From Gemmatimonadota bacterium (GTDB lineage: Bacteria > Gemmatimonadota > Gemmatimonadetes > Longimicrobiales > RSA9): a DNA stretch of 64,000 nucleotides. Positions 40,879 through 55,729 of the stretch are shown piece by piece. Positions within the stretch are counted from its first letter, which is position 1, and every line of letters starts with the position of its first letter. The notes beneath the pieces were generated by a model that did not search any database, was not told the DNA's origin, and saw nothing but the letters and a program-made list of their open reading frames with translations. Both the position numbers and the translations under genes were made by a program. The DNA is taken from NCBI GenBank assembly GCA_007126035.1, contig SLCC01000086.1, positions 680 to 64,679 on the forward strand, written 5' to 3'.

Positions 40879-42987
40879 ATGGCCACCGCGAAGGAATACA
40901 GCACGGACAGGATCCGTAACATCGCCGTATTGGGACATGGCGGCTCGGGCAAGACGACGCTGATAGACGCGCTCTGCTTCGTCGCCGGCTCGAGCCGCCG
41001 CCACGGGAAGGTGGGTGAAGGTACCGCCCTCACGATGTACTCGCCCGAGGAGATAGATCACGGCATATCCATGCAGACGGCCATTGGTTACGCCGAGTGG
41101 GAAGGCACCAAGCTCAATCTGCTGGACACTCCCGGTTACATGGATTTCACCGGCGAGGCGCTGGCAGCGACGAGGGTAGCCGATGGGGCTGTGCTTGTCC
41201 TCGGCGCCACGTCAGGCGTCGAGGTGGGTACCGAGAAGGTCTGGGAATACTGTGAGGAGCGGAGGATTCCCAGACTTTTTTTCGTCTCCATGATGGACAA
41301 GGAGCACGCCGATTTCGACGGGGTCTACCAGAAGGTCAAGGAGCAGTTGACGGAGAAGGTGGTCCCGGTGGAGATGCCCATCGGTGCCGGTGAGGATTTC
41401 CGTGGCATCATCGACCTCTTCAGCGGTCGGGCCCGCATGTACAAGGGTGACAGCCTGACCGGCGAGTACGAGGAGGCGGACATCCCGGCGGAGAAGCAGG
41501 ACCAGTTCGAGGAGTGGCGCACGGAGCTGATGGAGACGATCGCCACCACGGACGACGCACTGTTGGAGGCGTACCTGGAGGGCGGCGATATCGACCGGGA
41601 CCAGGCCATTTCCGCGCTGAAGGCGGCCATGCAGGACGGGGAGATCTTCCCGTTGTTCTGTGGCGCCCCCGAGAAGGCGTGGGGCGTGCGGGCGTTGGGG
41701 GGCAAGCTGGTGGAGCTCATACCGAGCCCGGCGGAGGCCCGGCCCGAGACGGCGCAGCGGCCGAACATCGACCAGGTGGTGGAATTGAAGGTGGACGATG
41801 GGGAACCCTTCGCCGCGCTGGTCTACAAGACGTTGAGCGAGCCTCATGTGGGCGAGCTGAGCTTCTTCCGCATCTACAGCGGAACGGCGGAGAGCGGCCT
41901 GGAGGTGCTCAACGCCAACAAGGAGGCGCCGGAGAAGCTGTCCCACATCTCGATATCCCAGGGCAAGGAGCGGCACGAGGTCTCGCGACTGCACGCGGGC
42001 GACATCGGAGTGGTGGCCAAGCTGAAGCAAACGGGGACGAACGATACGCTCTGCAGCCCATCGCGGCCGGTGATACTGGACCCCGTCCGGTTCCCGGAGC
42101 CCGACATCTCCGTGGCCATCCGGGCTGCGAGCCGGAGCGACGAGGACAAGCTGGGTATCGGGCTGTCCCGCCTGAGCGACGAAGACCCCACCTTCATCAG
42201 CGGTTACGAGCCGGAGATCCGTCAGACCATCATCCGGGGTCTGGGCGAGCTCCACCTCCAGGTCCAGATGGAGCGGCTGAAGCGGAAGTACGGCGTCGAG
42301 GTCAACACGGAGCAGCCGCGGATCAACTATCGGGAGACGATCCGGAAGGAGGCCGCCGCACCGGGCCGCTACAAGAAGCAGACTGGTGGCCGCGGCCAGT
42401 TCGGTGACTGTCACATCCGTCTGAAGCCAATGCCCCGCAATTCAGGCTACGAGTTCGTCGACGCCATCACCGGCGGCGTGATCCCGGGCAAGTTCATCCC
42501 CTCGGTGGACAAGGGGATCCAGGAGGCGGCCCGCCGTGGCGTGGTGGCCGGGTTCCCGCTGGTGGACTTCCAGGCGGAGTGTTACGACGGCTCCTACCAC
42601 AGTGTGGACTCCAGCGACGTGGCCTTCCAGGTGGCGGGCTCCATGGCGTTCAAGAAGGCGGCCCAGGACGCGGCGCCGGTCATTCTCGAGCCCATCGTGG
42701 AGGTGGAGATCAACACGCCCGAGGAGTACATGGGCGACATCATGGGTGACCTGAACCAGCGGCGGGGCAAGATCCTGGGCATGGATACCCAGGGATCGAA
42801 GACCATCATCCGCGCGTTGGTGCCGGAGGCGGAGCTCTACAAGTATGCCACCACCCTGCGCTCCATGAGCCACGGCCGGGCCATCCATACCAGGCGGTTC
42901 CACGGTTACGAGGACGTCCCCCCCAACGTGGCGGAGAAGGTGATCGCGGAGACGAAGCGGGAGGCGGCGGAGGAGGTGCACGCATAG
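40879..42987 (+). CDS. fusA: Elongation factor G paralogue (EF-G2 type)
   Basis: GHGGSGKTT, DTPGYMDF, GLGELHL, KKQTGGRGQFG, DGSYHSVDSS; not in an rpsL-rpsG-tuf context. Confidence 0.9.
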   Translation: MATAKEYSTDRIRNIAVLGHGGSGKTTLIDALCFVAGSSRRHGKVGEGTALTMYSPEEIDHGISMQTAIGYAEWEGTKLNLLDTPGYMDFTGEALAATRVADGAVLVLGATSGVEVGTEKVWEYCEERRIPRLFFVSMMDKEHADFDGVYQKVKEQLTEKVVPVEMPIGAGEDFRGIIDLFSGRARMYKGDSLTGEYEEADIPAEKQDQFEEWRTELMETIATTDDALLEAYLEGGDIDRDQAISALKAAMQDGEIFPLFCGAPEKAWGVRALGGKLVELIPSPAEARPETAQRPNIDQVVELKVDDGEPFAALVYKTLSEPHVGELSFFRIYSGTAESGLEVLNANKEAPEKLSHISISQGKERHEVSRLHAGDIGVVAKLKQTGTNDTLCSPSRPVILDPVRFPEPDISVAIRAASRSDEDKLGIGLSRLSDEDPTFISGYEPEIRQTIIRGLGELHLQVQMERLKRKYGVEVNTEQPRINYRETIRKEAAAPGRYKKQTGGRGQFGDCHIRLKPMPRNSGYEFVDAITGGVIPGKFIPSVDKGIQEAARRGVVAGFPLVDFQAECYDGSYHSVDSSDVAFQVAGSMAFKKAAQDAAPVILEPIVEVEINTPEEYMGDIMGDLNQRRGKILGMDTQGSKTIIRALVPEAELYKYATTLRSMSHGRAIHTRRFHGYEDVPPNVAEKVIAETKREAAEEVHA

Positions 42988-43006
42988 CGGGACAGGGTTG
43001 GAGATC

Positions 43007-43597
43007 ATGGGCGCACATTCTATAAGAGCAGCCTCTCTTGCGGTGGTAGTGGCGGTCATGGCCACAGTGGCCGGTCCCCTGGACGGCCAGGCGCTGGGCA
43101 TCCCGATAAGCGTGGACGTCAGGGCGGAAGGGGCGTTCCCTGTGGGCGACTTCGGCGATGTGGCCGACCCGGGCTTCGGCCTGAGCGCTGGTGTGGCAGT
43201 GGGCATCTTCCCGCTGGTAGGGCTGTACGGCAGCTATTCGGACATCCGGTTCGGTGGCGGTTGGACCGGCGATGATCCCGCCGATGCCAGGGACTCGGGC
43301 TTCGCTGCGGGTGTGTCTGTGGCCATACCTGGCTGGCCGTGGCTCGATCCGTGGCTGGGCGGCGGCTTGCTGTTCCATCACCTTCAGCTGGATGGCTCGG
43401 GGCAGGGCATCAGCGAGGACCTGGGCTTCGAGGTCGGTGGTGGCGTGGCCATACCGATAGCCACGGGGATGAGGCTGAGCCCCGCCATCAACTACCGACA
43501 CTACGGCGCCAGCATCCAGGATCGGCCGGACATCGCGGTCCAGGACGTCACGGTGCAACACCTGTCCCTGGGGCTGGGGCTCAACATCGTCTTCTGA
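43007..43597 (+). CDS. Outer-membrane beta-barrel protein
   Basis: Signal peptide, AFPVGDF..PGFGL, C-terminal LGLNIVF. Confidence 0.75.
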   Translation: MGAHSIRAASLAVVVAVMATVAGPLDGQALGIPISVDVRAEGAFPVGDFGDVADPGFGLSAGVAVGIFPLVGLYGSYSDIRFGGGWTGDDPADARDSGFAAGVSVAIPGWPWLDPWLGGGLLFHHLQLDGSGQGISEDLGFEVGGGVAIPIATGMRLSPAINYRHYGASIQDRPDIAVQDVTVQHLSLGLGLNIVF

Positions 43598-43678
43598 GCC
43601 CCGGTGAGACTCTGTGGGCGGCCACGGAGCTGCACCCGGGTTGGCGGGGCCACCCCAGGGGCGACCCGGGGGCCAGCT

Positions 43679-44620
43679 TCAGCGGCGGTCGGTGTGGCGG
43701 ACTGTCAATTCGAACAGGTCCAGGCGCTGGTAGTGGCCGCTCACGTCCAGGGTCATGGCCTCTTCCACGTTGCGACGGTAGTCCAGCTCGGCCACCAGGA
43801 TGCCGGGCTCGTCGTAGAGCGGCCCGGCCAGGTAGGAGCCGTCCGGCGCGATTATGGCGCTCCCGCCCCGGAGGAGCAGCTGGTCAGGTGAGGTGACCTT
43901 CTCCGGGCTCGGCTCCAGATCCGGCGGCAGGTCCCGGGCCCGCATCAGCTGTCCGGCGGCGACGACGTGGCAGCGGCCCTCGAAGGCGTAGCATCGGCTG
44001 GCCTCCTGGTGGATACCATGGACGCCGACCACGGCGGACCACACGGCCACGTGCACGTCCTCGCCGGAGTCGTGCATGATCTGCCGGGCCAATGGGTTCC
44101 AGTGCTCCCAGCATATGAGTCCGCCCAGCCGACCGGCTGGGGTATCCACGGCCTCGAGCCCGGCGGTGTCACCGGGTCCCCACACCAGCCGCTCCGTGTA
44201 CGTTGGGTTGAGCTTGCGGTGGTGGTTGAGGAGCGAGCCGTCGGGGCCGATGGTGAGGAGCGTGTTGAAGAGGGTGCTCCGGCCGGGACCCTTCGCCACC
44301 CGCTCGCTCACTCCCACCACCAGGGTGATCTCCAGGTCCCGTGCCACGGAGGCCAGCTCGGCGAAGGAGTCGCCCTCCACCACCACGCTGTTTTCCACCA
44401 GGCGTAGGAAGGTCTCCTTGACTGGCGGGTGGTCCCAGAGCCCCGCGTCCCGGCAATAGTCCAACCAGGCAGGGTAGCCTGGCAGCCAGGTCTCGGGGAA
44501 CACCACCAGGGAGGCGCCCCTGCCCGCCGCCTCCGTCGCCAGCTTCCGTGTCTGCTCCAGTCCCGCCTTCAGCTCGCCCGGCTGCTCCGCCTGCACCACC
44601 GCCGCCGTCACTCGGTCCAT
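43679..44620 (-). CDS. Nitrilase (carbon-nitrogen hydrolase family)
   Basis: Triad motifs VFPETWLPGYP, HRKLNPTYTER, ICWEH; LDVSGHY. Confidence 0.92.
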   Translation of the reverse strand: MDRVTAAVVQAEQPGELKAGLEQTRKLATEAAGRGASLVVFPETWLPGYPAWLDYCRDAGLWDHPPVKETFLRLVENSVVVEGDSFAELASVARDLEITLVVGVSERVAKGPGRSTLFNTLLTIGPDGSLLNHHRKLNPTYTERLVWGPGDTAGLEAVDTPAGRLGGLICWEHWNPLARQIMHDSGEDVHVAVWSAVVGVHGIHQEASRCYAFEGRCHVVAAGQLMRARDLPPDLEPSPEKVTSPDQLLLRGGSAIIAPDGSYLAGPLYDEPGILVAELDYRRNVEEAMTLDVSGHYQRLDLFELTVRHTDRR

Positions 44621-44717
44621 GATCACCGCACCCCGGTTCTATCTCAGGTCACTGTGGGCTCGTTGTCGCCGGCGCAGAATGCGGGGGCGATGAGGTCCGG
44701 GCAAGAGACGGTGTGGT

Positions 44718-45452
44718 TCAGCGCAGCACGACTGCCGCGCCGTCGTACGCGAAGGAAGCCTCCACGCCTCGTTCGCGGGCCATGTCATCGAGCTGTTCGG
44801 CCAGGCGGGCCGGGTCACCGGTCACCACCTCCTTGCCGCAATGAGTGATCATTGCCCGGGGCACGCCCTCCTTCTGGCACCAGGTGAGTTGGGTGCGGAC
44901 GGGCGCGTGGCCGATGAGCCGGTCGTCGCGCCTGCGGACGAACGACCGGGTCATGGAGGCGCCGTCGCCGATGTAGAGCCGGCAGCCACGGAGCGCTTCC
45001 GCCCGGTCCTGGATGTAGACCAGGTCCGGCGCGTAGAATACCGCCACCCGGCCAGCAGTGATCCTGTAGCCCACGGCGGGTGCCCTTATCGAGTGCTCGA
45101 CGTTGAACGCTTCGAAGTCGACGCCGCGGATGGTCACCGGCTGGCGCGGCTCGATACGGTGCCGGTCAGCCGTAGCGATCGGGTAGCGGCCCAGCTCCTT
45201 CCACGACTCCGCCGTGGCGAATACGGGGGCGGGCGCGCCACCCTTCAGACCCCACGCGTGGTCCGGGTGGGCGTGGGTCACGACCACGGCGTGGGGCCGG
45301 GGTCGCAGCTCCCAGATGGCCTCACGCCAGTCCTCGCCCGCATCGACCATCATCCGAGCGCCCCGGTACTCCACCAGCAGCGCCGTGTGCATGTGGTGTC
45401 GGGGCGTGCGCGCGTCGATCTCGCCGCGCGTGCCCAGGAACGTGAGCTTCAT
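44718..45452 (-). CDS. MBL-fold metallo-hydrolase (RNase Z/PhnP/PqqB-like)
   Basis: LTFLGT, VDAG, THAHPDHAWG, VEHS, YAPD, ITH. Confidence 0.85.
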   Translation of the reverse strand: MKLTFLGTRGEIDARTPRHHMHTALLVEYRGARMMVDAGEDWREAIWELRPRPHAVVVTHAHPDHAWGLKGGAPAPVFATAESWKELGRYPIATADRHRIEPRQPVTIRGVDFEAFNVEHSIRAPAVGYRITAGRVAVFYAPDLVYIQDRAEALRGCRLYIGDGASMTRSFVRRRDDRLIGHAPVRTQLTWCQKEGVPRAMITHCGKEVVTGDPARLAEQLDDMARERGVEASFAYDGAAVVLR

Positions 45453-45501
45453 GCACGCCGAGCTGTAGCAGGACCCGGGCCGGCAACGGGGCGGCAGAGC
45501 C

Positions 45502-46584
45502 TTATCTTGCGATCGCTCTCTTCATGACTTCCGCCTCGGAGACCACCTGCGCCATGGTTTCCAGGTCGACCGTCTGTGCCGCATCGGAAGCTGCCCGATC
45601 CGGTTCCGGGTGCGCCTCGACCAGCAGGCCATCTGCGCCGCAGGCGATGGCGGCGCGGGCCAGGGGCCGGACGTAGACCCGTCGTCCCGTGCCATGGCTC
45701 GGGTCCACGAGGACGGGCAGCCGGGTGCGCTCCCTCAACACGGGTATGGCGTTCAGGTCCAGCGTGTTGCGGGTAGCCGTCTCGAAGGTCCTGATGCCTC
45801 GCTCGCAGAGGATGACCCGGGGGTTGCCGGCGGCGACGATGTATTCGGCGGCGCTCAGCCATTCGTCGATGGTGGCGGCCAGCCCTCGTTTCAGCAGTAC
45901 GGGCCGTCGGGCGCGGCCCAGCTCCCTGAGCAGCGACGTGTTGTACATGTTCCGGGCGCCGACCTGGAGGACGTCGACGTATCGGGCTGCGATGGGGATC
46001 TGGGTGGCGTCCAGGACCTCGCTTACCAGGAGAAGTCCGTGGGCGGCGGCGGCATCGTGGGCGATGGCGAGCCCCGTCTCGCCCATGCCCTGGAAGCTGT
46101 ACGGACTGCTCCTGGGCTTGAATGCCCCGGCCCGGAGCGCGGCTCCTCCGGCGGCGGCCACGGCCGCGGCCGTGCGGTCCATGGTATCGGCGTCCTCCAC
46201 GGAGCAGGGTCCGGCGGCGATGAACAGCTCCGCCCCGCCGATCCACCTGTCCTTTACCTGGAAGCCGCGTTCCTCGGCGTCGGTGGGAGCGCCGTTGTCC
46301 GGATCCCATGCTTCATCTTCCGGTGCCGCCGTCGCGTGTGGGGCTGCCACCATGGGCGTGGCGCCGTCACCGTTCAGCGTGGCCGACACGCCCGGCATGT
46401 CCGCGATCGCCTCTGTGCCCACCGGCGTGGTCGGGCTCGACTCCGTACCGGGAGCCGGTCCTGCGGTGGAGAGCACTACCCGCTCTCCGTCCAGCCGCAG
46501 GACGCGGATGCCGGTTCTGCTCAGCCGCTCCACCACGTCCGCGACCTGGGCCTCCGTCGCCGAAGGATCCATGACTATGATCAT
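45502..46584 (-). CDS. aroF: 3-deoxy-7-phosphoheptulonate (DAHP) synthase, type I-beta
   Basis: AGPCSVE, GAFKPRSSPYSFQG, QVGARNM, LCERGIRTFE, DPSHGTG; start 46584. Confidence 0.95.
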   Translation of the reverse strand: MIIVMDPSATEAQVADVVERLSRTGIRVLRLDGERVVLSTAGPAPGTESSPTTPVGTEAIADMPGVSATLNGDGATPMVAAPHATAAPEDEAWDPDNGAPTDAEERGFQVKDRWIGGAELFIAAGPCSVEDADTMDRTAAAVAAAGGAALRAGAFKPRSSPYSFQGMGETGLAIAHDAAAAHGLLLVSEVLDATQIPIAARYVDVLQVGARNMYNTSLLRELGRARRPVLLKRGLAATIDEWLSAAEYIVAAGNPRVILCERGIRTFETATRNTLDLNAIPVLRERTRLPVLVDPSHGTGRRVYVRPLARAAIACGADGLLVEAHPEPDRAASDAAQTVDLETMAQVVSEAEVMKRAIAR

Positions 46585-47426
46585 GCTGTCGCTCCTGGTT
46601 GCTGTCCGGTGGCCTGGTGCTGGGGGAGCTTGCCGGCCGGGGCCATGGCCCGCCGGAGCGCCCTTACCAGTTCGCCCACTGCCTCGCCGGGCCCGGCCCG
46701 GAAGGCGGTATCGACGAGGGCGCTGCCCACGATGATCCCGTCGGCGACGCCGGCGATGGAGGCGGCGTCGGCGGCAGAGGCTATGCCGAATCCCACGGCC
46801 ACCGGCGCGGGGCCGGCAGCACGGGCCTCCGCCACCCGCCGGCGCAGATCGACGGGATAGGCGCCGGCGCCGGTGACGCCGCGGTGTCGCATGACGTAGA
46901 CGAAGCCCGTGGTAATCGCGGCGATCTGCCGGGTCCGGTCGATGCTGGTGTCGGGGCCTGTGAGGAACACCGTTCCGAGCCCGGCAAGGTGCGCCTCCTG
47001 GCGAAGGCTGGCGGCGTCGTCCACCGGCAGGTCGGGGATCAGGAGCCCACTCACCCCCGCCTCCGCCGCGTCCTGGCAGAACCGGTCCGTGCCATAGGCC
47101 AGGACGCAATTGAGCGCCACCATGAGGACCACGGGGGCGCCGGTGGCAGCGGCGACCCGGGCCGCGCATTCCAGGGTGGCTGCCGTGGTCGCTTCGCCTG
47201 CCAGCGCCCGCTCGTAGGCGGACTGGATGACGGGACCGTCGGCCAGAGGATCGCTGAAGGGGCTGCCCAGCTCGATGATATCGGCGCCCGCGGCCACGGC
47301 GGTCCGGGCCAGCTCCACGGTGGTGTGGTAGTCAGGGTCGCCGGCGGCCAGGAAGACTATCAGCGCGGCCCGATCTTCAGCGGCCGCCCGTGCGAAGGCC
47401 GCGGCGATTCGTTCTGGTCCGTTCAT
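46581..47426 (-). CDS. trpA: Tryptophan synthase alpha
   Basis: [32 protein letters not shown]. Confidence 0.95.
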
Positions 47427-48616
47427 GTGGTCCCTCCCGGTACCGAGTCCACGTCCTTGTCCCCACGGCCGGAGAGGCAGACCACCAGGACGCTCTCAGG
47501 TCCCAGCCGCCCCGCCCACTCCATGGCATGGGCCACCGCGTGGGCCGATTCAAGGGCCGGTATGATCCCTTCCCGGAGTGAGAGGGCGGCGAAGGCTGCC
47601 CGGGCCGCGTCGTCGCCGACGCTCAGGTAGCTGGCCCGGCCCACGTCGTGGAGCCACGAATGCTCGGGACCCACGCCCGGGTAGTCCAGGCCGGCGGCCA
47701 GGGAGTGGGTGCCCATTATCTGGCCGTCGCCATCCTGCAGGAGGTATGAGGCCGCGCCGTGAAGCACGCCGGGCCGGCCTCGGGAGATGCTGGCGGCGTG
47801 GCGGCCCGGCTCGAGCCCGGCGCCACCTGCCTCGACGCCCGTCAGCGCCACGTCATGGTCGTCGATGAAGGCGCTGAAGAGGCCGATGGCGTTGCTGCCC
47901 CCGCCCACGCACGCCACCAGCCCGTCGGGCAGCCGGCCCTCGGCCTCCAGGACCTGGGCCCGGGCCTCGGTCCCGATCACGGATTGCAGGGATCGCACGA
48001 TGGTGGGGTACGGGTGGGGCCCCACGGCGGAGCCGATGAGGTAGTGGGTGTCCCGGTACGATGACATCCACTCCCGTATGGCCTGGTTGGTGGCCTCCTT
48101 CAACGTCCGCGAGCCCGTCTCCACAGGCACCACCTCGGCGCCCAGCAGCTCCATGCGGACCACGTTCAGGCGCTGTCTGGCCATGTCCGCCGAGCCCATG
48201 TAGACTCGGCAGGGCATGCCCAGTAGAGCGGCGGCGGTAGCGGAGGCCACGCCGTGCTGCCCTGCTCCGGTCTCGGCTATCAGCCGATCCCGACCCAGCT
48301 CACGGGCCAGCAGCGCCTGGCCCAGCGCGTTGTTGAGCTTGTGGCTCCCGGTGTGGCAGAGGTCCTCCCGCTTCAGGTAGATCCGGGCGGCATCGGGTCC
48401 CACGAGCCGGCGCGTCCGGTGGAGTGGCGTGGGTCGTCCCACGTAGGTCCGGAGCAGGGAGGCAAGCCGTGCCTGGAAGGCCGGGTCGGTGGAGACCTGG
48501 CTCCAGCCGGCGGCCAGGTCGTCCAGGGCGGGGATGAGCGTCTCGGGCACATAACGGCCACCGAAGGGGCCGAACCGCCCCGCGTCGGCCCCGGTCACAG
48601 GGGTCATGATCATCAA
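47423..48616 (-). CDS. trpB: Tryptophan synthase beta
   Basis: [43 protein letters not shown]. Confidence 0.98.
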
Positions 48617-49338
48617 CTATGCTCCATTTCCAGGTGGCGGGCTCTGCCCAGGAATGCGGACAGGCTCGCTGGATCCTTGATCCCCGGCGCCGTCTCGACG
48701 CCGGACGAAACGTCCACCATGGCGGGCCGGACCGCCGCCACGGCCTTCGCCAGGTTCTCCGCGGTCAGTCCGCCGGCCAGGGCGACCCGGTCACGAGGCC
48801 AGGGCAACCCGCGGACGGAGGCCCAGTCGAATGTCCGCCCGGTACCACCGAACCGACCCCGCAACGGGGGCGCGTCCAGGAGGAAGGCGTCCGCCGGGTA
48901 ATCGGCGAAGCGCTCCGGGCCTTCGGCGGCTCGCACATGGACCGCTCGCAGCAGGCCGGGTGCGCGGCGGCCGGGTGCGGCCGCCCGGGCCGCCTCCATG
49001 ATGGCCAGGCTCCGGACGGCAGGCTCACGGCCGGAGAGCTGGACCCAGTCCAGGTCGCAGGCCGCCACGACCTCGGCGACCAGGTCGGGGTCCGGGTCGA
49101 CGAACACGCCCACCCGGGCCACGTGCGGCGGTGCCCCGGACAGCACCTCCGCAGCCCTGGCCGGGTCGACCATGCGCGGGCTCGGCGCCAGGACCACACC
49201 CAGGGCCGCGGCCCCCAGTCGCGCGGCCAGCGCCGCGTCGGCTGGCCTGGTCAGCCCACAGATCTTGACCGCCAACCCGGCCGGCCCTTCGGGCAACGGT
49301 CGGGCCGACCTCGCGCCCTCCGGGAGCACGGGCCTCAT
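48613..49338 (-). CDS. trpF: Phosphoribosylanthranilate isomerase
   Basis: [44 protein letters not shown]; start 49338. Confidence 0.95.
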
Positions 49339-50156
49339 GGCGTTCCCCGCCGGAGCACCCCGGCGAGCTGACGCAGCCGGACCGGCCGCACCGCCCGGGG
49401 CGCCAGGAGCAGCGCCTCTCCCACCAGCACGGCGTGGGCGCCGGCGTCCCGGACCCGGCGCACGTCGTCCGCCGACCGGATTCCGCTCTCGCTGACCACT
49501 ACCGCGTGGGCAGGCGCCAGGGGGGCCAGGCGCTCCGTGACGGCGATGTCCGTGGTGAGGCGACGCAGGTCCCGGTTGTTGATACCGACCATCGTCGCGC
49601 CCGCCGCGGCCGCCCGTTCCAGCTCCTGCTCTGTGTGGACTTCCACGAGGCATTCCAGCCCGGCGACCCTGGCGGCGGCCAGCAGCGACGACAGCTCTCC
49701 AGCGTCCAGCATCGCCACGATCAGCAGAGCCGCCGCCGCGCCCGCCAGCCGGGCCTCGAAGAGCTGTCCCGCGTCGACGATGAAGTCCTTGCGCAGTACG
49801 GGCACCTCCGGCTCGCCTGCCGCCACCGCTTCCAGGTCGGAAAGGGCGCCGCCGAAGTCGTCGCCGTCGGTGAGCACCGAGAGGGCGACGGCGCCGGCGG
49901 ACCGGTACCCTGCCGCCACCGCCGTCGCCTCCTCGCCCGGGGCCAACAGCCCGGCGCTGGGGCTCCGGCGCTTGTACTCCGCCATCACGGCTATCCGGTC
50001 GCCGCCGGAGAGGGCCGCCGCCAGCGATGGCGCAACGGGCAACTCCCGGCACCGCTCCAGCAGGAGCTGGTCGGTGCCATTGTCGCGTGCCTGGCGACGA
50101 CGACGGACGGCGTCGGCCTTGCGAGCCAGGAAGCCGCCGGGCGTTGCCGTCCTCAT
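49335..50156 (-). CDS. trpC: Indole-3-glycerol phosphate synthase
   Basis: AEYKRRSPSAG, SVLTD, LRKDFI, LVEVH, GINNRDL, SESGI. Confidence 0.96.
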   Translation of the reverse strand: MRTATPGGFLARKADAVRRRRQARDNGTDQLLLERCRELPVAPSLAAALSGGDRIAVMAEYKRRSPSAGLLAPGEEATAVAAGYRSAGAVALSVLTDGDDFGGALSDLEAVAAGEPEVPVLRKDFIVDAGQLFEARLAGAAAALLIVAMLDAGELSSLLAAARVAGLECLVEVHTEQELERAAAAGATMVGINNRDLRRLTTDIAVTERLAPLAPAHAVVVSESGIRSADDVRRVRDAGAHAVLVGEALLLAPRAVRPVRLRQLAGVLRRGTP

Positions 50157-51283
50157 CGGCCCCACCCCGCGGGCATGGCGGGCACGGCTGCCTCGACCTT
50201 CCGGACGGGGCGCCCAGCTCCGACGGTGCGGGAGAAGTCGACCAGCGCCTGGAGGCTTGCCAGGGCGCGGCCAGAGCGGATGCTGGCGCGAGCCGCGTCC
50301 ATGCCGTCTCGCAGGTCCGCCGCCCGCCCGGCCACCACCAGCGCCGCCGCGGCGTTGAGGACCACCACGTCACGGCCGGCCTCCAGGTCGAAGCCGGCGG
50401 GCAGCCCGGCGTCGTGCCCGGCCCCGGCGTCGCCCAGGATGGCCCGGGCGATGGCCGCGTTATCCGCCGCGCTGCCGCCCCGCATGCCCGCCGCGCGGCG
50501 GGCGGGGAGACCGAGCTCATCGAGTCGCACCGTGCGCTCCCGGAGGGCGGAGCCGTCCCACTCCGCGACCAGAGACGGCCCCGTCACCGCCAGCTCGTCG
50601 AGCCCGCCGTCCCCGTGTACGACCATGGCCCGGCGTGCTCCCAGACGGGCCAGCGCCTCGGCCACCGGGCGGACCAGCTCGGCATCGAACACGCCCACCA
50701 CCTGGGCGCCGGAGCCGGCGGGGTTGCAGAGGGGTCCGAGCAGGTTGAACACGGTCCGGACCGCCAGCTCCCGGCGAACCGGTGAGGCGTGGCGCATGGC
50801 GGAGTGGTAGACGGGGGCGAAGAGGAAGGTGATACCTGCCGCTTCCAGCGCCCGGCTCGCTTCGTGACCGTTCATGGTCACGTCCACGCCCAGCGCCTCG
50901 AGCACGTCCGCCGAGCCGGTGGCGCTGGAGACGGCACGGTTGCCATGCTTCGCCACCTCGACCCCAGCCCCGGCCACCACGAAGGCGGCGGTCGTCGAGA
51001 TGTTGAACGTGCCCGTCCCGTCGCCGCCGGTGCCGCAGGTGTCAACCAGCTCCGGTCGGGCGCCGGGGAAGGGCGCGGAGCGGGCCCGGATGGCACGGGC
51101 GCAGCCGACGATCTCGTCCACCGTCTCTCCCTTCGAGCGGAGGCCCATGAGGAACGCCGCCACCAGCATGGGAGACAGCCCGCCCTCCATGACGGCGGAC
51201 ATGGAATCCATCGCCTGTTCTTCGTCCAGGTCCTGGCCCCGGGCCAGGCGGCGGAGCGCCTCGCGGATCGGGTGCTCGCTCAT
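50153..51283 (-). CDS. trpD: Anthranilate phosphoribosyltransferase
   Basis: DTCGTGGDG..FNIST, KHGNRAVSS..GSADVLE, RTVFNLLGPL. Confidence 0.97.
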   Translation of the reverse strand: MSEHPIREALRRLARGQDLDEEQAMDSMSAVMEGGLSPMLVAAFLMGLRSKGETVDEIVGCARAIRARSAPFPGARPELVDTCGTGGDGTGTFNISTTAAFVVAGAGVEVAKHGNRAVSSATGSADVLEALGVDVTMNGHEASRALEAAGITFLFAPVYHSAMRHASPVRRELAVRTVFNLLGPLCNPAGSGAQVVGVFDAELVRPVAEALARLGARRAMVVHGDGGLDELAVTGPSLVAEWDGSALRERTVRLDELGLPARRAAGMRGGSAADNAAIARAILGDAGAGHDAGLPAGFDLEAGRDVVVLNAAAALVVAGRAADLRDGMDAARASIRSGRALASLQALVDFSRTVGAGRPVRKVEAAVPAMPAGWGR

Positions 51284-51873
51284 GGGGACCTCCTCTGGTT
51301 CAGGAAATTGGAGAGTATCTGTTCGCCGGCGGCCGTCATTATCGACTCGGGGTGGAACTGGACTCCCTCGGCGGGCAACGCCTCGTGGCGCAGTCCCATC
51401 ACCACGCCAGCATCGTCCCGGGCGCTGACCTCCAACTCCGGGGGCAGCGACGACTCGACCACCGCCAGGGAGTAGTAGCAGCCGGCGTCGAAGGGGACCG
51501 GTACGTCGACGAAGACGCCGCGGCCGTCGTGGCTGATACTGGCAGGCCTGCCGTGCACCGGCTCGGGCGCCGGTGTCACGGCGGCGCCGAAGACCCGGCC
51601 CAGGAGCTGGTGGCCCAGGCAGACGCCCAGGACCGGGCAGAGGACAGAGCCGCCGTCCAGGCCCAGGGCCCGACGCACCACTGCCGCCGCGTTCCCGGCG
51701 CGGTCCGGGTGGGAGGGGCCCGGTGAGATGATCAGTCCCGCAGGCCCGATCGCCTCGAGGCGGGCCGGATCCAGCGCGTCGTTGCGGACCACGTCCACCT
51801 CGGCACCGAGGCAGCCCAGGATCTGGACCAGGTTGAACGTGAAGGAGTCGTAGTTGTCCAGGACCAGGATCAT
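51280..51873 (-). CDS. trpG: Anthranilate synthase component II
   Basis: DNYDSFTFNL, ISPGP, GVCLGHQ, QFHPES. Confidence 0.95.
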   Translation of the reverse strand: MILVLDNYDSFTFNLVQILGCLGAEVDVVRNDALDPARLEAIGPAGLIISPGPSHPDRAGNAAAVVRRALGLDGGSVLCPVLGVCLGHQLLGRVFGAAVTPAPEPVHGRPASISHDGRGVFVDVPVPFDAGCYYSLAVVESSLPPELEVSARDDAGVVMGLRHEALPAEGVQFHPESIMTAAGEQILSNFLNQRRSP

Positions 51874-53561
51874 GGCTGAAGCCCTCCAGTCTGCTCCAGG
51901 GCCTCGATAAGGGCTCGCGCCTTCTCCGCCGTCTCCGCCAGCTCCCGCCGCGGGATCGAGTCGGCTACCACGCCGGCGCCCGCCTGGACCGTGGCCCGGC
52001 CCCGCCGGATGACGATCGTGCGGATCGTGATGCACGCGTCCAGGGAGGTGGCGCCCGGAGCGATATGCGCCACGGCACCGGCGTAGGCGCCACGCCGCGT
52101 CGTTTCCAGCTCCTCGATCAGCTCCATGGCCCGGACCTTCGGTGCCCCCGATACGGTGCCTGCGGGAAAGCAGGCGGCAAAGGCGTCCAGCGCGTCCACG
52201 CCTTCCCGGAGCCGACCCGTCACCACCGAGACCAGGTGCATCACATGGCTGAAGCGGTCCACCTCCATGAGCCGGGGCACGTGGACCGACCCCGCTCGGC
52301 AGACACGGCCCAGGTCGTTCCGCCCCAGGTCAACCAGCATCACATGCTCAGACAGCTCCTTCGGGTCCGCCCGCAGCTCCGACTCGAGCCGCGCGTCCTC
52401 CTCCGGGTCGGCACCACGGCGACGGGTGCCCGCTATGGGCGATACCTGCGCGGCCCCGTCCTCCACCCGGACCAGCATCTCGGGCGACGCGCCGGCGAGG
52501 GTGACCTCGGGGAACTCCAGGAAGAACATGTACGGCGCCGGCGACACCCGCCGGAGCGCACGGTACAGGTCGAACGGGTCACCCTCGAAACCCGTCTCCA
52601 GGCGTCGGGACAGCACCACCTGGATCGCCTCGCCCGCCCTGATCAGCCGCACCGCCTCCGCCACGGACGAGAGGAAGGTGCCGTCGTCCGGGTGCCAGCG
52701 GGCAGCGGAGCCGCCGGGGCCGGCGGTGGCGACGCCCCGTGTGGAAAGGTGGCCCGTGTCGTCACCGCCGGCGTCAGGGCCGCTCAGGGCCGCTCCGACG
52801 CCGTGCCGATGGGGCCGCGGCTGGAACGTGGGGGCGCGACCCCGCCGCAGGGCGTCCAAGACCCCGTCGATCCTGCCCCGAGCCCGGCGGAGCCGTTCCG
52901 CCCTCGCCGCGTGGTCCCGGGAAGGTGGCAGCAGGGAGATCGCCAGCATTTGCTGCCGCGCGTGGTCGAACGCCAGCACGGTATGGAAGCGGGCGAACAG
53001 AGCGGCCGGGAAGCCTGTCTCGTCCGCCAGCTCCACCGGCAGCCGCTCCAGGGTCCGCGACAGGTCGTAGCCGAAGGCGCCCACCAGCCCGCCGACAAAG
53101 CCCGGCAGGTCGGCCCCACCCACGCCCCAGGTCTCCGTCGGCGACGAGCCCGCCACCGGTCCGCCGCCGGTCCAGACGGCTGTCTGCCCGGCCAGCCGGC
53201 GCACAGCGTCCAGCGGGGCCCCGCGGTAGGCCGCCACCTCCGAGTCGCCCGTCACCGTCCCCCGGTCCAGGTCCGCCCGGAGCACCCTGTCCGGTGCGGC
53301 ACCGATGAAGGAGTAACGGCCCAATCTGCCGTCGTGCTCGCCACTCTCCAGCAGGAAACCGGTGCCGCCACGGCGGAGCTTCAGGAATGCCGAGACCGGT
53401 GTCTCGGTGTCCGATGGCAGCGATACCCAGACCGGGACCACCGCGTCGAGTGGCGCTGACAGCACCTGCTCACGCAGTGACTCGTCCACCGCGCTCCCGG
53501 TGGCCCCTGGGCCGGGCGGCGCGTGCTGACCGCCGGTCGCCGTGTGTGTTGCCGATCGCAT
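51870..53561 (-). CDS. trpE: Anthranilate synthase component I
   Basis: DTETPVS, FLLES, ASPE, PIAGTR, EHVMLVDLGRND, FPAGTVSGAPKVRAM. Confidence 0.96.
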   Translation of the reverse strand: MRSATHTATGGQHAPPGPGATGSAVDESLREQVLSAPLDAVVPVWVSLPSDTETPVSAFLKLRRGGTGFLLESGEHDGRLGRYSFIGAAPDRVLRADLDRGTVTGDSEVAAYRGAPLDAVRRLAGQTAVWTGGGPVAGSSPTETWGVGGADLPGFVGGLVGAFGYDLSRTLERLPVELADETGFPAALFARFHTVLAFDHARQQMLAISLLPPSRDHAARAERLRRARGRIDGVLDALRRGRAPTFQPRPHRHGVGAALSGPDAGGDDTGHLSTRGVATAGPGGSAARWHPDDGTFLSSVAEAVRLIRAGEAIQVVLSRRLETGFEGDPFDLYRALRRVSPAPYMFFLEFPEVTLAGASPEMLVRVEDGAAQVSPIAGTRRRGADPEEDARLESELRADPKELSEHVMLVDLGRNDLGRVCRAGSVHVPRLMEVDRFSHVMHLVSVVTGRLREGVDALDAFAACFPAGTVSGAPKVRAMELIEELETTRRGAYAGAVAHIAPGATSLDACITIRTIVIRRGRATVQAGAGVVADSIPRRELAETAEKARALIEALEQTGGLQP

Positions 53562-53603
53562 CCCGCTCTCCCCTCCGCCCACAACGGGCGGGTAGACAGG
53601 TAC

Positions 53604-53651
53604 AAAAAGAGGCGGGCGCGCCCCTCTGCTTCGAGAGGAGCGCGCCCGCCT
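53604..53651 (-). terminator. Intrinsic terminator of the trp attenuator
   Basis: mRNA AGGCGGGCGCGCUCCUCU-CGAAGC-AGAGGGGCGCGCCCGCCU-CUUUUU: 18-bp stem (one G.U) plus U-tract between leader ORF and trpE. Confidence 0.9.
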
Positions 53652-53680
53652 GGGGTCGACGCCGGTACTACCTGTTCAGA

Positions 53681-53773
53681 TCACGAACTCCCGGCGCTCA
53701 CGCACTCCTCCCCCGACGGCCACCACCACCAGCCGCTGCCGATCATTACGGGAAACAGAGTGCGCTCGATCAT
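53681..53773 (-). CDS. trpL: trp operon leader peptide (30 aa, WWWW)
   Basis: MIERTLFPVMIGSGWWWWPSGEECVSAGSS*; TGGx4 at 53731-53720; lies directly before the terminator; alternative ATG at 53746. Confidence 0.85.
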   Translation of the reverse strand: MIERTLFPVMIGSGWWWWPSGEECVSAGSS

Positions 53774-53782
53774 TGTCGTGAA

Positions 53783-53812
53783 GGGATAGCGGAAGGACGA
53801 GCGGGCTGTCAA
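53783..53812 (-). promoter_or_regulatory. Putative sigma70 promoter of trp operon
   Basis: TTGACA-N18-TATCCC, 9 nt before the trpL ATG. Confidence 0.6.
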
Positions 53813-53851
53813 CCCCGCTGCCGGATGCGCGTCCGAGGGGGGCGCCGGGCG

Positions 53852-53880
53852 TTGCCCTTTCCTGTGTCGGGTCATACGAT
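53852..53880 (+). promoter_or_regulatory. Putative sigma70 promoter of yggS operon
   Basis: TTGCCC-N17-TACGAT, 8 nt before ATG 53889. Confidence 0.6.
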
Positions 53881-53888
53881 ACGCTCCC

Positions 53889-54590
53889 ATGTGGGAAGCG
53901 CAGATACGGCATGCGCTCGCGGAAGTGGGCGAGCGGATCGATAGAGCTCTGGTAAGAGCTGGGCGGGCGGAGGGCGTTCAGGTCATCGGGATCACCAAGG
54001 GCCACCCCACCGAGGTGGTCCAGGCCGCCTTGCAGGTCGGCCTCCGTGCCCTGGGCGAGAACCGGGTCCAGGAGCTGGAGCAGAAGGTGGCCGAGGTGGG
54101 GCGCGACGCCGCTGAATGGCACATGGTCGGCCATCTCCAGCGCAACAAGGCCCGCTCCGCTACAGCAACCTCCGACTGGATCCATTCGTTGGATTCACTC
54201 AGGCTGGGCAGGACCCTGGATCGGGAGGCGTCTCGGGCGGGGCAGCCGATCCGCGCGCTCCTCCAGGTGAACACATCCGGTGAAGCGAGCAAGGGCGGGT
54301 TCGAGCCGGAGACGGCAGTTCAGGCTCTGGCAGAGCTCAGCGAGCTGGGCTCCCTGGAGATCCATGGCCTCATGACGATGGCGCCGTGGACCGACGACGA
54401 GGCGGTCCTGCGGACCACGTTCCGCAGGACCCGCGAGCTGCTGGAGCGGTGCGAGCAGGAGCTGCCCGGCGCACTGCGCGGGCGCGAGCTCTCCATGGGG
54501 ATGAGCAATGACTTCGAGATCGCCGTCGAGGAAGGCGCGACAATGGTCCGCCTGGGGACGGTTCTTTTCGGTGAAAGGGAGCAGCGATGA
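53889..54590 (+). CDS. yggS: YggS family PLP-binding protein
   Basis: GITKG, LGENRVQE, WHMVGHLQRNK, SKGG, GLMTM, LSMGMSNDF..VRLGT. Confidence 0.95.
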   Translation: MWEAQIRHALAEVGERIDRALVRAGRAEGVQVIGITKGHPTEVVQAALQVGLRALGENRVQELEQKVAEVGRDAAEWHMVGHLQRNKARSATATSDWIHSLDSLRLGRTLDREASRAGQPIRALLQVNTSGEASKGGFEPETAVQALAELSELGSLEIHGLMTMAPWTDDEAVLRTTFRRTRELLERCEQELPGALRGRELSMGMSNDFEIAVEEGATMVRLGTVLFGEREQR

Positions 54591-55729
54591 TCGATCTGAC
54601 ACCACTTGAGGTCCGGCAGAAGAAGGGCGACTTCCGGCGAACGCTGAGAGGTTATGATCCCGAGTTGGTCAACGATTTCCTGGACCTGGTCGCGGATCGC
54701 ATGGAGGAGCTGGTCAAGGAGAACCTGGGCCTTCGAGACTCCATGGAATCGGTCAGGGAGGAGCTCTCCGATTACCGCCGCAAGGAGCAGGCGCTGTCGG
54801 AAGCGCTCATGTCCGCCCAGAAGCTCCGCGAGGATGCGCGCCACCAGGCGGAGCGGGAGCGGGACCTGATGTTGAGGGAGGCCCGGCTTGCCGCGGAAAC
54901 GTTGCGCCAGGAGGCGTCGCGTCAGCTCGTTCGGGAAGAAGAAGCCCTGCGGCAGATGAAGGCCCGTCGGCTCCAACTCGTGGACAGCTTCCGACGCCTC
55001 CTCGAGCGGGAGATCGATGAGCTCGACGTGATCCAGGAGACGCTCGACCTGGAGGGGCCGGCGTCACCGCCGCGGGTGCCCGAGCAGCAGGAAGGCTCCC
55101 AATCGGCGGCGCAACTTTCCGCCCTGGCGCCGGAAGACCAACCTCCGCCTGTTCAGGAGGAGGCTCAGGAGGAGGCTCAGGAGGAGGCTCGGGAGGAGGC
55201 TCGGGAGGAGGCCGTCCCGGTCACACATGATGAGCCTGAGCCATGGGACGAGCAGACGTCCGTGCCGGAGGCGCGACCGACCCTGACCGCGGCCGAGGAA
55301 GGTTGGCCGACGCCGGCACCCGGGCCCGAGGATGCGCCACCGACCCCGGCACCCGAGCCCGAGGATGCGCCACCGACGCCGGCACCCGGGCCCGAGGAAG
55401 GGCGGTCGACCCCGGCACCCGGGCCCGAGGATGCGCCACCGACCCCGGCACCCGGGCCCGAGGATGCGCCGACGGTTGTGCCCCATGAGAAACCGGTGTG
55501 GGAGCCAGCGCCGGCACCGGAGGAGGCGGCGTCCGAGGAGTCATCGTCTTCCGGGAGGCCGCGGCCGTTCGAGGATGCATCGGACTTCGATGATTCGTTG
55601 CGGATAGTGCCCGAGGAGCTGGGCCCCCTCGACCTGCCGAACGAGAGAGGGGCCAAGGACGGGACGGACCGGAAGGACCGGTCAGAGGATGATCAGGACG
55701 ACTGGTTGTCGACGCTCATGAAGGAATAG
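54587..55729 (+). CDS. DivIVA domain protein with long acidic Pro-rich tail
   Basis: LTPLEVRQK..FRRTLRGYDPELVNDFLD followed by coiled coil; yggS-divIVA-ileS synteny. Confidence 0.9.
   Translation: MIDLTPLEVRQKKGDFRRTLRGYDPELVNDFLDLVADRMEELVKENLGLRDSMESVREELSDYRRKEQALSEALMSAQKLREDARHQAERERDLMLREARLAAETLRQEASRQLVREEEALRQMKARRLQLVDSFRRLLEREIDELDVIQETLDLEGPASPPRVPEQQEGSQSAAQLSALAPEDQPPPVQEEAQEEAQEEAREEAREEAVPVTHDEPEPWDEQTSVPEARPTLTAAEEGWPTPAPGPEDAPPTPAPEPEDAPPTPAPGPEEGRSTPAPGPEDAPPTPAPGPEDAPTVVPHEKPVWEPAPAPEEAASEESSSSGRPRPFEDASDFDDSLRIVPEELGPLDLPNERGAKDGTDRKDRSEDDQDDWLSTLMKE
55154..55213. repeat. 12-bp tandem repeat CRGGAGGAGGCY x5, encoding (Q/R)EEA
   Basis: Seen directly. Confidence 0.9.
55307..55471. 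repeat. 33-bp tandem repeat x5 encoding PTPAPGPEDAP-like units
   Basis: Near-identical units starting at 55307, 55340, 55373, 55406, 55439; no spacers. Confidence 0.9.

Follow-up and report, generated by a model that had tools for sequence, protein, structure and literature searches.

In a 64,000-nucleotide (nt) stretch of a contig from a Gemmatimonadota bacterium (hereafter, the window), we identified a leader element upstream of trpE that is probably (about 85% by our estimate) a ribosome-mediated transcription attenuator, which would sense charged tRNA-Trp (Trp, tryptophan) and control trpE-G-D-C-F-B-A-DAHP synthase. Gemmatimonadota is an abundant, mostly uncultured phylum of soil and sediment, and to our knowledge its regulatory RNAs are nearly undescribed. 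The element combines a promoter-like sequence, a short open reading frame (ORF) with a run of Trp codons and RNA segments with predicted alternative folds. It is conserved in 16 loci, and its hairpins 1:2, H and 3:4 show covariation. The parts of the leader, in window coordinates and with hexamers in minus-strand reading, are as follows.

53807–53812, minus strand: –35 hexamer TTGACA
53783–53788, minus strand: –10-like hexamer TATCCC, after an 18-nt spacer and 9 nt ahead of the ATG
53681–53773, minus strand: trpL-like leader ORF MIERTLFPVMIGSGWWWWPSGEECVSAGSS, 30 codons plus TGA, without a Shine-Dalgarno (SD) sequence
53749–53765, minus strand: segment 1, GCGCACUCU.UUUCCCG, which forms the 5΄ side of hairpin 1:2, the anti-antiterminator (from minimum free energy (MFE) folds and compensatory changes in relatives)
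53720–53731, minus strand: regulatory Trp codons, four TGG in a row (codons 15–18)
53700–53715, minus strand: segment 2, CGGGGGAGGAGUGCGU, pairing with segment 1 or, as the antiterminator, with segment 3
53659–53697, minus strand: hairpin H, GCGCCGG...CCGGCGU, separating segment 2 from segment 3; its apical part includes the leader stop codon
53634–53651, minus strand: segment 3, forming the terminator's 5΄ arm and including GCGCGCUCCUC (53645–53635), which is complementary to segment 2
53603–53627, minus strand: segment 4 (3΄ arm of the terminator, 53627–53610) and the U tract (CUUUUUG, 53609–53603)

A preliminary description of the window had reported TTGACA-N18-TATCCC lying 9 nt before an ATG without an SD sequence, a leader ORF with Trp codons, an 11-bp pairing between 53710–53700 and 53645–53635, and an 18-bp terminator ending in a U tract, and we found each of these where it had been placed. 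The start codon occupies 53773–53771 and the stop codon TGA 53683–53681. The 9 nt between the –10-like hexamer and the ATG (TTCACGACA) are rich in pyrimidines and contain no GGAG-like run. The segment 2 stretch (DNA GAGGAGTGCGT, RNA GAGGAGUGCGU) can form 11 pairs, two of them G-U, with the segment 3 stretch (DNA GCGCGCTCCTC, RNA GCGCGCUCCUC), and the terminator stem (53651–53610) consists of 18 pairs, 14 of them GC, directly followed by CTTTTTG. What the preliminary description had missed was the conserved hairpin H, as well as the published leaderless Trp attenuators of other phyla. Runs of (TGG)4 or longer occur 49 times in the 3.88-Mb genome when both strands are counted, so that chance is unlikely to have placed one in the correct orientation no more than ~200 nt from trpE. 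A 169-aa ORF on the minus strand (53676–54185) overlaps the leader in another frame; it had no Pfam match and was treated as spurious.

We computed the folding energy of the 183-nt leader RNA and compared it with those of dinucleotide shuffles. The MFE was –90.4 kcal/mol (z = –3.61), and none of 200 shuffles was as stable. The MFE structure comprised three hairpins, namely 1:2, which has its apex at the Trp codons, H and the terminator. An Rfam cmscan of positions 52000–55500 with E-values up to 10 returned no leader, T-box or riboswitch family, including Trp_leader (RF00513); the sole returns were chance-level matches of microRNA-type and plastid hairpins to the terminator.

From these elements we infer the following course of events, with transcription start, ribosome stalling, kinetic competition between folds and Trp dependence as its predicted components. 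Transcription would start at or within ~3 nt of the leader ATG, and the leader peptide would be translated from a leaderless or near-leaderless mRNA. When Trp is plentiful, the ribosome would pass the four Trp codons and reach the stop codon inside H, melting H; segment 1 would re-pair with segment 2 behind the ribosome, freeing segment 3 for segment 4. The resulting 18-bp hairpin and U tract would end transcription 42 nt before trpE, as they also would if no ribosome had loaded. When Trp-tRNA is scarce, the ribosome would stall at codons 15–18, in the apical part of 1:2, and keep segments 1 and 2 apart. Segment 2, with H stacked on top, would then capture segment 3 once it is made, so that the terminator would not form and transcription would read through into trpE.

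Conservation and covariation of the leader RNA

The element was found in 16 distinct loci, 13 of which precede close relatives of the window's TrpE and 3 of which precede a lone trpB2. The geometry from promoter to ATG is kept in all 16 leaders: a TTGAC-like hexamer, N17–18, a TA-initial hexamer (mostly TAnnnT), 6–10 nt and the ATG. TTGAC itself is present in 15 leaders, and L001 has TTGTGC. The –10 hexamers of the relatives, 6–10 nt from the ATG, include TAGAAT, TAAGCT, TAGCTT, TAGTTT, TAGCGT and TAGCAT. A conserved Trp run, which the preliminary description had proposed to look for by aligning relatives, occurs in every leader (WWWW, WWxWWW, WxWWW or WWW), within peptides of 26–37 aa. Two subtypes are apparent, ...WWWWP.GEEC.xAG and ...WW.WWWP..RGVVRG; in the latter (GVV subtype), segments 1 and 2 are each longer by a matching 3-nt insertion. 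In the leader RNA, the cores GUGCGC and GGCGCGCU are nearly invariant. The codon immediately after the Trp run (53717–53719 in the window) encodes Pro (CCG, CCC or CCU) in 8 of the 16 leaders and Arg in 5; speculatively, a Pro at this site might strengthen stalling.

In the MFE folds, all 16 leaders form 1:2, whose apical part holds the Trp codons, then H and then the terminator. Hairpin H is kept throughout with differing sequences, and its pairs (helix 7) change on both sides. The leader stop codon lies inside H in 15 leaders. In the remaining one (L005, 1273–1356), a UAG inside segment 2 yields a 27-aa peptide, a position nearer to the E. coli layout, and the RNA segments are retained, which indicates that it is the RNA, rather than the tail of the peptide, that is constrained.

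Covariation was assessed on two MAFFT alignments (A1 and A3) and on a model-fitted alignment (A4), which leans towards the structure of the model. We also used A4 because A1 and A3 misalign segment 1 between the two subtypes, owing to the 3-nt insertion in both arms of the GVV subtype. In A4, pairing holds in 91.7% of the cells, and both sides have changed in 18 of the 42 pairs, with neither value reached by any of 500 shuffles; when the partners were slid by 1–3 columns as a control, pairing was 40–61%. RNAalifold detected 12 compensatory pairs among 42 and 10 among 27 on the MAFFT alignments. Compensatory changes on both sides were located in 1:2 (helices 1–3) and in the terminator (helix 9) of A4. 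The covarying stems anticipated by the preliminary description were accordingly found for 1:2, H and 3:4; the antiterminator 2:3 did not show them.

We modeled the stalled ribosome by masking the RNA as far as 13 nt beyond the first nucleotide of the final Trp codon and truncating it where segment 3 ends, at a stage when segment 4 has yet to be made. In these folds, segment 3 paired with segment 2 in 16/16 leaders, by 7–14 nt and mostly with H as an apical extension. The comparison of folds with and without ribosome masking, which had been suggested beforehand, thus gave the 2:3 pairing in one case and the terminator fold in the other for each of the 16 leaders. On A3, a 13-pair 2:3 helix was 93.7% paired in register, compared with 43–78% when slid. 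The retention in all 16 leaders of the Trp run, 1:2, 3:4 and a potential 2:3, together with the compensatory changes of the terminator state, points to ribosome-mediated attenuation, as had been proposed for the window.

Distribution of the leader and the operon that it precedes

Among nine Gemmatimonadota-labelled genome loci with a close TrpE, eight have the leader (L001 and L003–L009). No leader was found at the ninth, L002, a low-coverage contig (1.6x) with only 364 nt of upstream DNA. A sequence in this DNA (L002:1–364), GAGCGGGCGCGCCCGTCGGTGTTTTGG, is similar to the 3΄ half of the terminator of the family and may belong to a decayed or misassembled leader. The locus L072 ('uncultured bacterium', with 58% TrpE identity in the best segment) had no leader. 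All six metagenome contigs that have upstream DNA and a TrpE at least 55% identical carry it (L203–L208).

We built a covariance model (R1) from nine leaders and applied it to a phylum-wide sample of 151 genomes, five of which gave strong full-length matches: the window's own genome (G000), G049, whose leader sequence is the same as L006, and G109, G112 and G149, which belong to one genus in another family than the window's. In this genus, the leader (G149:C67, L083; G112:C62, L084; G109:C32, L085) precedes a lone TrpB2-type gene of 453–455 aa (NF009057 / TIGR01415). With the window's proteins as queries, TrpE was not found in G109 or G112 at an E-value of 1e-60 or better, and DAHP synthase was not found in G109 or G149 at 1e-20 or better. 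A lone trpB2 under the same control in three genomes suggests Trp synthesis from scavenged indole, and these organisms may be Trp auxotrophs. The occurrence of one leader before two different Trp-synthesis genes, trpE and trpB2, ties the leader to Trp. Three weak full-length R1 matches were rejected, because they lay inside a coding region (G076, L088), belonged to a different, Trp-free leader (G047, L089) or looked coding (G079, L103).

We further surveyed 99 trpE upstream regions from 99 genomes, out of 109 genomes with a TrpE match. Left out were the unpublished G097 and G057, both of which are counted in the tally of 151 genomes and in that of TrpE matches but support none of our conclusions, two regions at contig ends (G005 and G047), the window's own G000, and five weak TrpE matches (G083, G090, G110, G023 and G021). 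Ten regions other than that of G049 contain a WW pair in a short-tailed open frame (L104, L109, L114, L123, L124, L146, L175, L184, L191 and L199), which may reflect chance or different leaders. By these comparisons the leader family is real but patchy, and it goes with one TrpE clade and, separately, with trpB2.

In the window, the genes behind the leader are arranged as follows.

51870–53576, minus strand: trpE (anthranilate synthase I; Pfam PF00425 and PF04715), with ATG at 53561 and SD GGAGG/GGAG at 53576–53568
45502–51873, minus strand: trpG, trpD, trpC, trpF, trpB, trpA and DAHP synthase (Pfam, NCBIfam and junction sequences)
50156–49335, minus strand: trpC (Pfam/NCBIfam)
46584–45502, minus strand: DAHP synthase with an N-terminal ferredoxin-like domain (Pfam/NCBIfam)

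ATGA overlaps make up six of the seven junctions from trpE to DAHP synthase, including that joining DAHP synthase to trpA, and the gap between trpF and trpB is at most 5 nt. A terminator scan of positions 42000–54000 (genome GC content, 68.6%) identified the attenuator's terminator as the only terminator-like site. In G049, trpE and the DAHP synthase match share contig and strand, and the latter begins ~5.2 kb below the point where the trpE match ends, an arrangement also seen in the window. Given the tight junctions and the lack of an internal terminator-like site, the DAHP synthase gene is very probably in the same transcript as trpE, which agrees with the earlier suggestion that this enzyme shares the control of trpE. 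Trp control would thereby extend to the first committed step of aromatic synthesis.

A metallo-beta-lactamase-fold gene and then a nitrilase-family gene follow DAHP synthase, with gaps of ~47 and ~90 nt. The terminator scan found no terminator-like site after DAHP synthase or after either of these genes, which may or may not be members of the operon. Upstream and divergent from the leader are a YggS-type gene, then DivIVA and IleRS. The YggS-family gene (plus strand, ATG 53889; 53852–53891) appears leaderless itself, with TTGCCC-N17-TACGAT 8 nt before its ATG, and its promoter stands back to back with that of the trp leader, ~40 nt apart.

Weighing of the probable attenuator and of the proposed leaderless initiation

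Several results count against the interpretation given above. First, the antiterminator 2:3 lacks covariation support, in that only one pair changes on both sides, a level equalled by 138 of 500 shuffles; so low a number is expected if both partners of segment 3 restrict its sequence, but it does not prove the pairing. The energy of the 2:3 duplex is not better than that of G-rich shuffles (z-value above –1) in 7 of the 16 leaders (–0.83 in the window). Second, the terminator fold is more stable than the antiterminator in all 16 leaders (–60.1 compared with –33.0 kcal/mol in the window), and read-through would therefore depend on kinetics, as the classical model also assumes. Third, the stop codon is 13–24 nt past segment 2 in 15 leaders, where a ribosome barely covers segment 2; termination must consequently rely on the re-forming of 1:2, unlike in the E. 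coli picture. Two of the trpB2-type members (L084 and L085) have poor U tracts. A search for RNA data sets that cover 53400–54000 listed none, and the one metatranscriptome from the sample of the window gave 0 contigs. The –10 hexamer of the window, TATCCC, is weak and has no T at position 6, a consensus promoter scan of positions 52500–55000 calls no promoter-like site at the leader, and the 9-nt spacing to the ATG exceeds the 6–7-nt peak of the genome's leaderless genes (see below). Finally, the element is rare in the phylum, with a full-length match in only 5 of the 151 sampled genomes, and among the 99 surveyed trpE upstream regions the leader occurs only in that of G049.

We collected 231 sites of the form TTG[AC][AC]N-N17/18-TANNNT in the window's genome and recorded the starts of ORFs of at least 100 aa downstream of them. 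ORF starts peaked at 6 nt (11), 7 nt (9) and 8 nt (3) after these promoters, compared with 0–3 at each of the other distances from 0 to 28 nt, which indicates that this genome uses leaderless mRNAs. PMC10783764 tabulates a value of 22 for the class Gemmatimonadetes, in what we take to be a column of percentages of SD use. Among the 16 leaders, the distance from the –35 hexamer to the ATG is always 35–39 nt despite the divergent sequence between them, and no purine-rich SD is present in the 6–10 nt ahead of any ATG. These observations are consistent with the leaderless or near-leaderless leader mRNA of the preliminary description. The 9-nt spacing in the window suggests a 5΄ untranslated region (UTR) of 0–3 nt, and we consider a 5΄ UTR of at most about 4 nt to be fairly probable.

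The same attenuator could also operate without being leaderless, if transcription began further upstream or if a short 5΄ UTR were combined with another form of SD-independent initiation. This possibility is the best of the alternatives, given the weak –10 hexamer, the empty promoter scan and the fact that the spacing from the –10 hexamer to the ATG is 8–10 nt in 11 of the 15 relatives as well as 9 nt in the window. We nevertheless regard it as unlikely, since a start site independent of the ATG would hardly account for the narrow range of –35-to-ATG distances; moreover, four leaders (L083, L084, L085 and L207) have the canonical 7-nt spacing, and the lack of SD sequences extends to every leader.

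It is considerably less probable that the element is an independent small gene, encoding a Trp-rich micropeptide or a small RNA (sRNA) and ending in a constitutive terminator, with trpE transcribed from a promoter of its own. The distance from the U tract to the trpE ATG is 42 nt, this gap holds the trpE SD, and the promoter scan found no promoter-like site in it or elsewhere in 52500–55000, so that trpE appears to depend on read-through. A very strong terminator that is always more stable than the antiterminator would be in keeping with a small gene, as would the RNAs and peptides derived from the Sinorhizobium attenuator, which act in trans according to PMC7298713. However, the peptide tail is not conserved as a protein, as seen in L005, whose ORF stops inside segment 2; the element accompanies two kinds of Trp-synthesis gene; and segments 1 to 4 display the mutually exclusive pairing logic of an attenuator.

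Control of termination by a TRAP-like protein or a T-box-like tRNA mechanism and translational control of trpE, which are known alternatives to ribosome stalling for trp operons in other phyla and of which we saw nothing specific here, are the least probable explanations: the Rfam search gave no T-box match, no run of GAG/UAG triplet repeats was visible when the leader sequence was read, the trpE SD lies outside the conserved hairpins, and sensing by a ribosome predicts the conserved in-frame Trp run, which keeps a fixed position between segments 1 and 2.

Relation to known attenuators

The E. coli trpL leader encodes a 14-aa peptide with two Trp codons in segment 1 and a stop codon between segments 1 and 2. 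The Gemmatimonadota leader shares with trpL (RF00513) a short ORF with tandem Trp codons, the pairings 1:2 and 3:4 (with 2:3 as a predicted alternative), an intrinsic terminator before trpE and the predicted logic of stalling, antiterminator formation and read-through. In contrast, its peptides have 26–37 aa instead of 14 and 3–5 Trp codons instead of 2, the Trp codons are at the apex of 1:2 instead of in segment 1, and the stop codon is 13–24 nt past segment 2, inside the extra hairpin H. Its leader ORF has no SD and is of an apparently leaderless type, its operon includes DAHP synthase, and it has no Rfam match. A summary of attenuation in E. coli is given in the accessible section of PMC4007540.

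Leaderless Trp attenuators have been described in other phyla. In Sinorhizobium meliloti, an Alphaproteobacterium, the transcript of the Trp attenuator (trpL/rnTrpL) begins with the ATG of the leader ORF, as stated in the available text of PMC7298713. A leaderless leader peptide, established there by the transcript start, is proposed here from promoter geometry; the S. meliloti system differs in its 14-aa peptide, its restriction to trpE(G) and its demonstrated functions in trans (PMC7298713, same portion). For Deinococcus deserti, a genome rich in leaderless mRNAs, the excerpted part of PMC4007540 reports 14 predicted leaderless leader peptides, including one for trpEGD, whose transcription start site is 1 nt before the start codon. 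That species belongs to another phylum, and its start site was mapped by differential RNA sequencing, whereas ours is predicted from the spacing of the promoter. Among Actinobacteria, trp attenuators are mentioned for Corynebacterium glutamicum and Streptomyces venezuelae in the consulted extract of PMC4833913, and leaderless polycysteine upstream ORFs of mycobacteria act on operonic gene expression according to the available part of bioRxiv 10.1101/834739. To the extent covered by these extracts, the actinobacterial and mycobacterial systems resemble the present one in high GC content and runs of the sensed amino acid, and parallel its probable use of leaderless short ORFs as sensors, in another phylum.

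Our literature searches did not find a description of an attenuator for Gemmatimonadota, and the string 'Gemmatimon' was absent from the attenuator surveys that we examined; surveys in subscription journals, which were outside the scope of these searches, may hold one. Likewise, the preliminary description knew of none in the presumed lineage, without confirming novelty. The conserved RNA family is new, its probable mechanism is a known one, and its layout is a variant with a long leader, Trp codons at the apex and a stop codon inside an extra hairpin. No new principle is involved, since ribosome-mediated Trp attenuation, leaderless versions included, is textbook knowledge or published. The family has no Rfam model, and the 16 aligned members could seed one.

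Two further possibilities arise from the comparison. By analogy with rnTrpL and peTrpL, the terminated leaderless RNA of ~170 nt, which would be abundant, could act in trans, as an sRNA or through its peptide. The patchy spread of the leader, together with the close TrpE relatives found beside it, could reflect the joint movement of operon and leader by horizontal transfer. We consider it rather unlikely, though less so than any of the alternatives above, that the element represents a distinct attenuator design, in which the stop codon lies in a hairpin stacked inside the antiterminator and the re-forming of 1:2 decides the outcome, with a possible RNA or peptide acting in trans and possible transfer of operon and leader.

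A leader of similar construction precedes hisG in the window's genome (G000:C137:11754–12128, minus strand; also L283). It consists of TTGACG-N17-TAGGCT, 7 nt, an ATG (12083) and the peptide MTSACVHTLHHHHHHGPDGSRWWRVYVV (HHHHHH), followed by a GC hairpin with T7 and then hisG (TIGR00070). Its layout makes it a His attenuator of the leaderless type, built like the trp leader. The apparent use of leaderless leader peptides as Trp and His sensors in this lineage helps to annotate small ORFs and 5΄ regions in metagenome-assembled genomes.

Other leaders were observed in the collected loci. In L016 (~1280–1440), L028, L060, L020, L211, L217 and L266, trpE is preceded by a WWW leader peptide and a terminator. 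L016, L028 and L060 are among the contigs labelled Balneolales, Bacteroidetes and Desulfomonilaceae, and L211, L217 and L266 are unlabelled. These leaders look unrelated to the present family (examples are MINAVQIAKRSWWWSIR and MKHILSNKSWWWLIA), and several have a promoter directly before the ATG. In L089 (~1460–1790; G047:C2), a promoter-to-ATG leader ORF, MINLALYPICRISMCASLNRETDRRVRARCTNA, is followed by a strong terminator with T8 and by a gene that starts with MSTTIEQEHVAGLGTRAIHVGQ, a beginning that we take to resemble those of Cys/Met-metabolism enzymes dependent on pyridoxal phosphate (PLP). This locus may be another leader-peptide attenuator.

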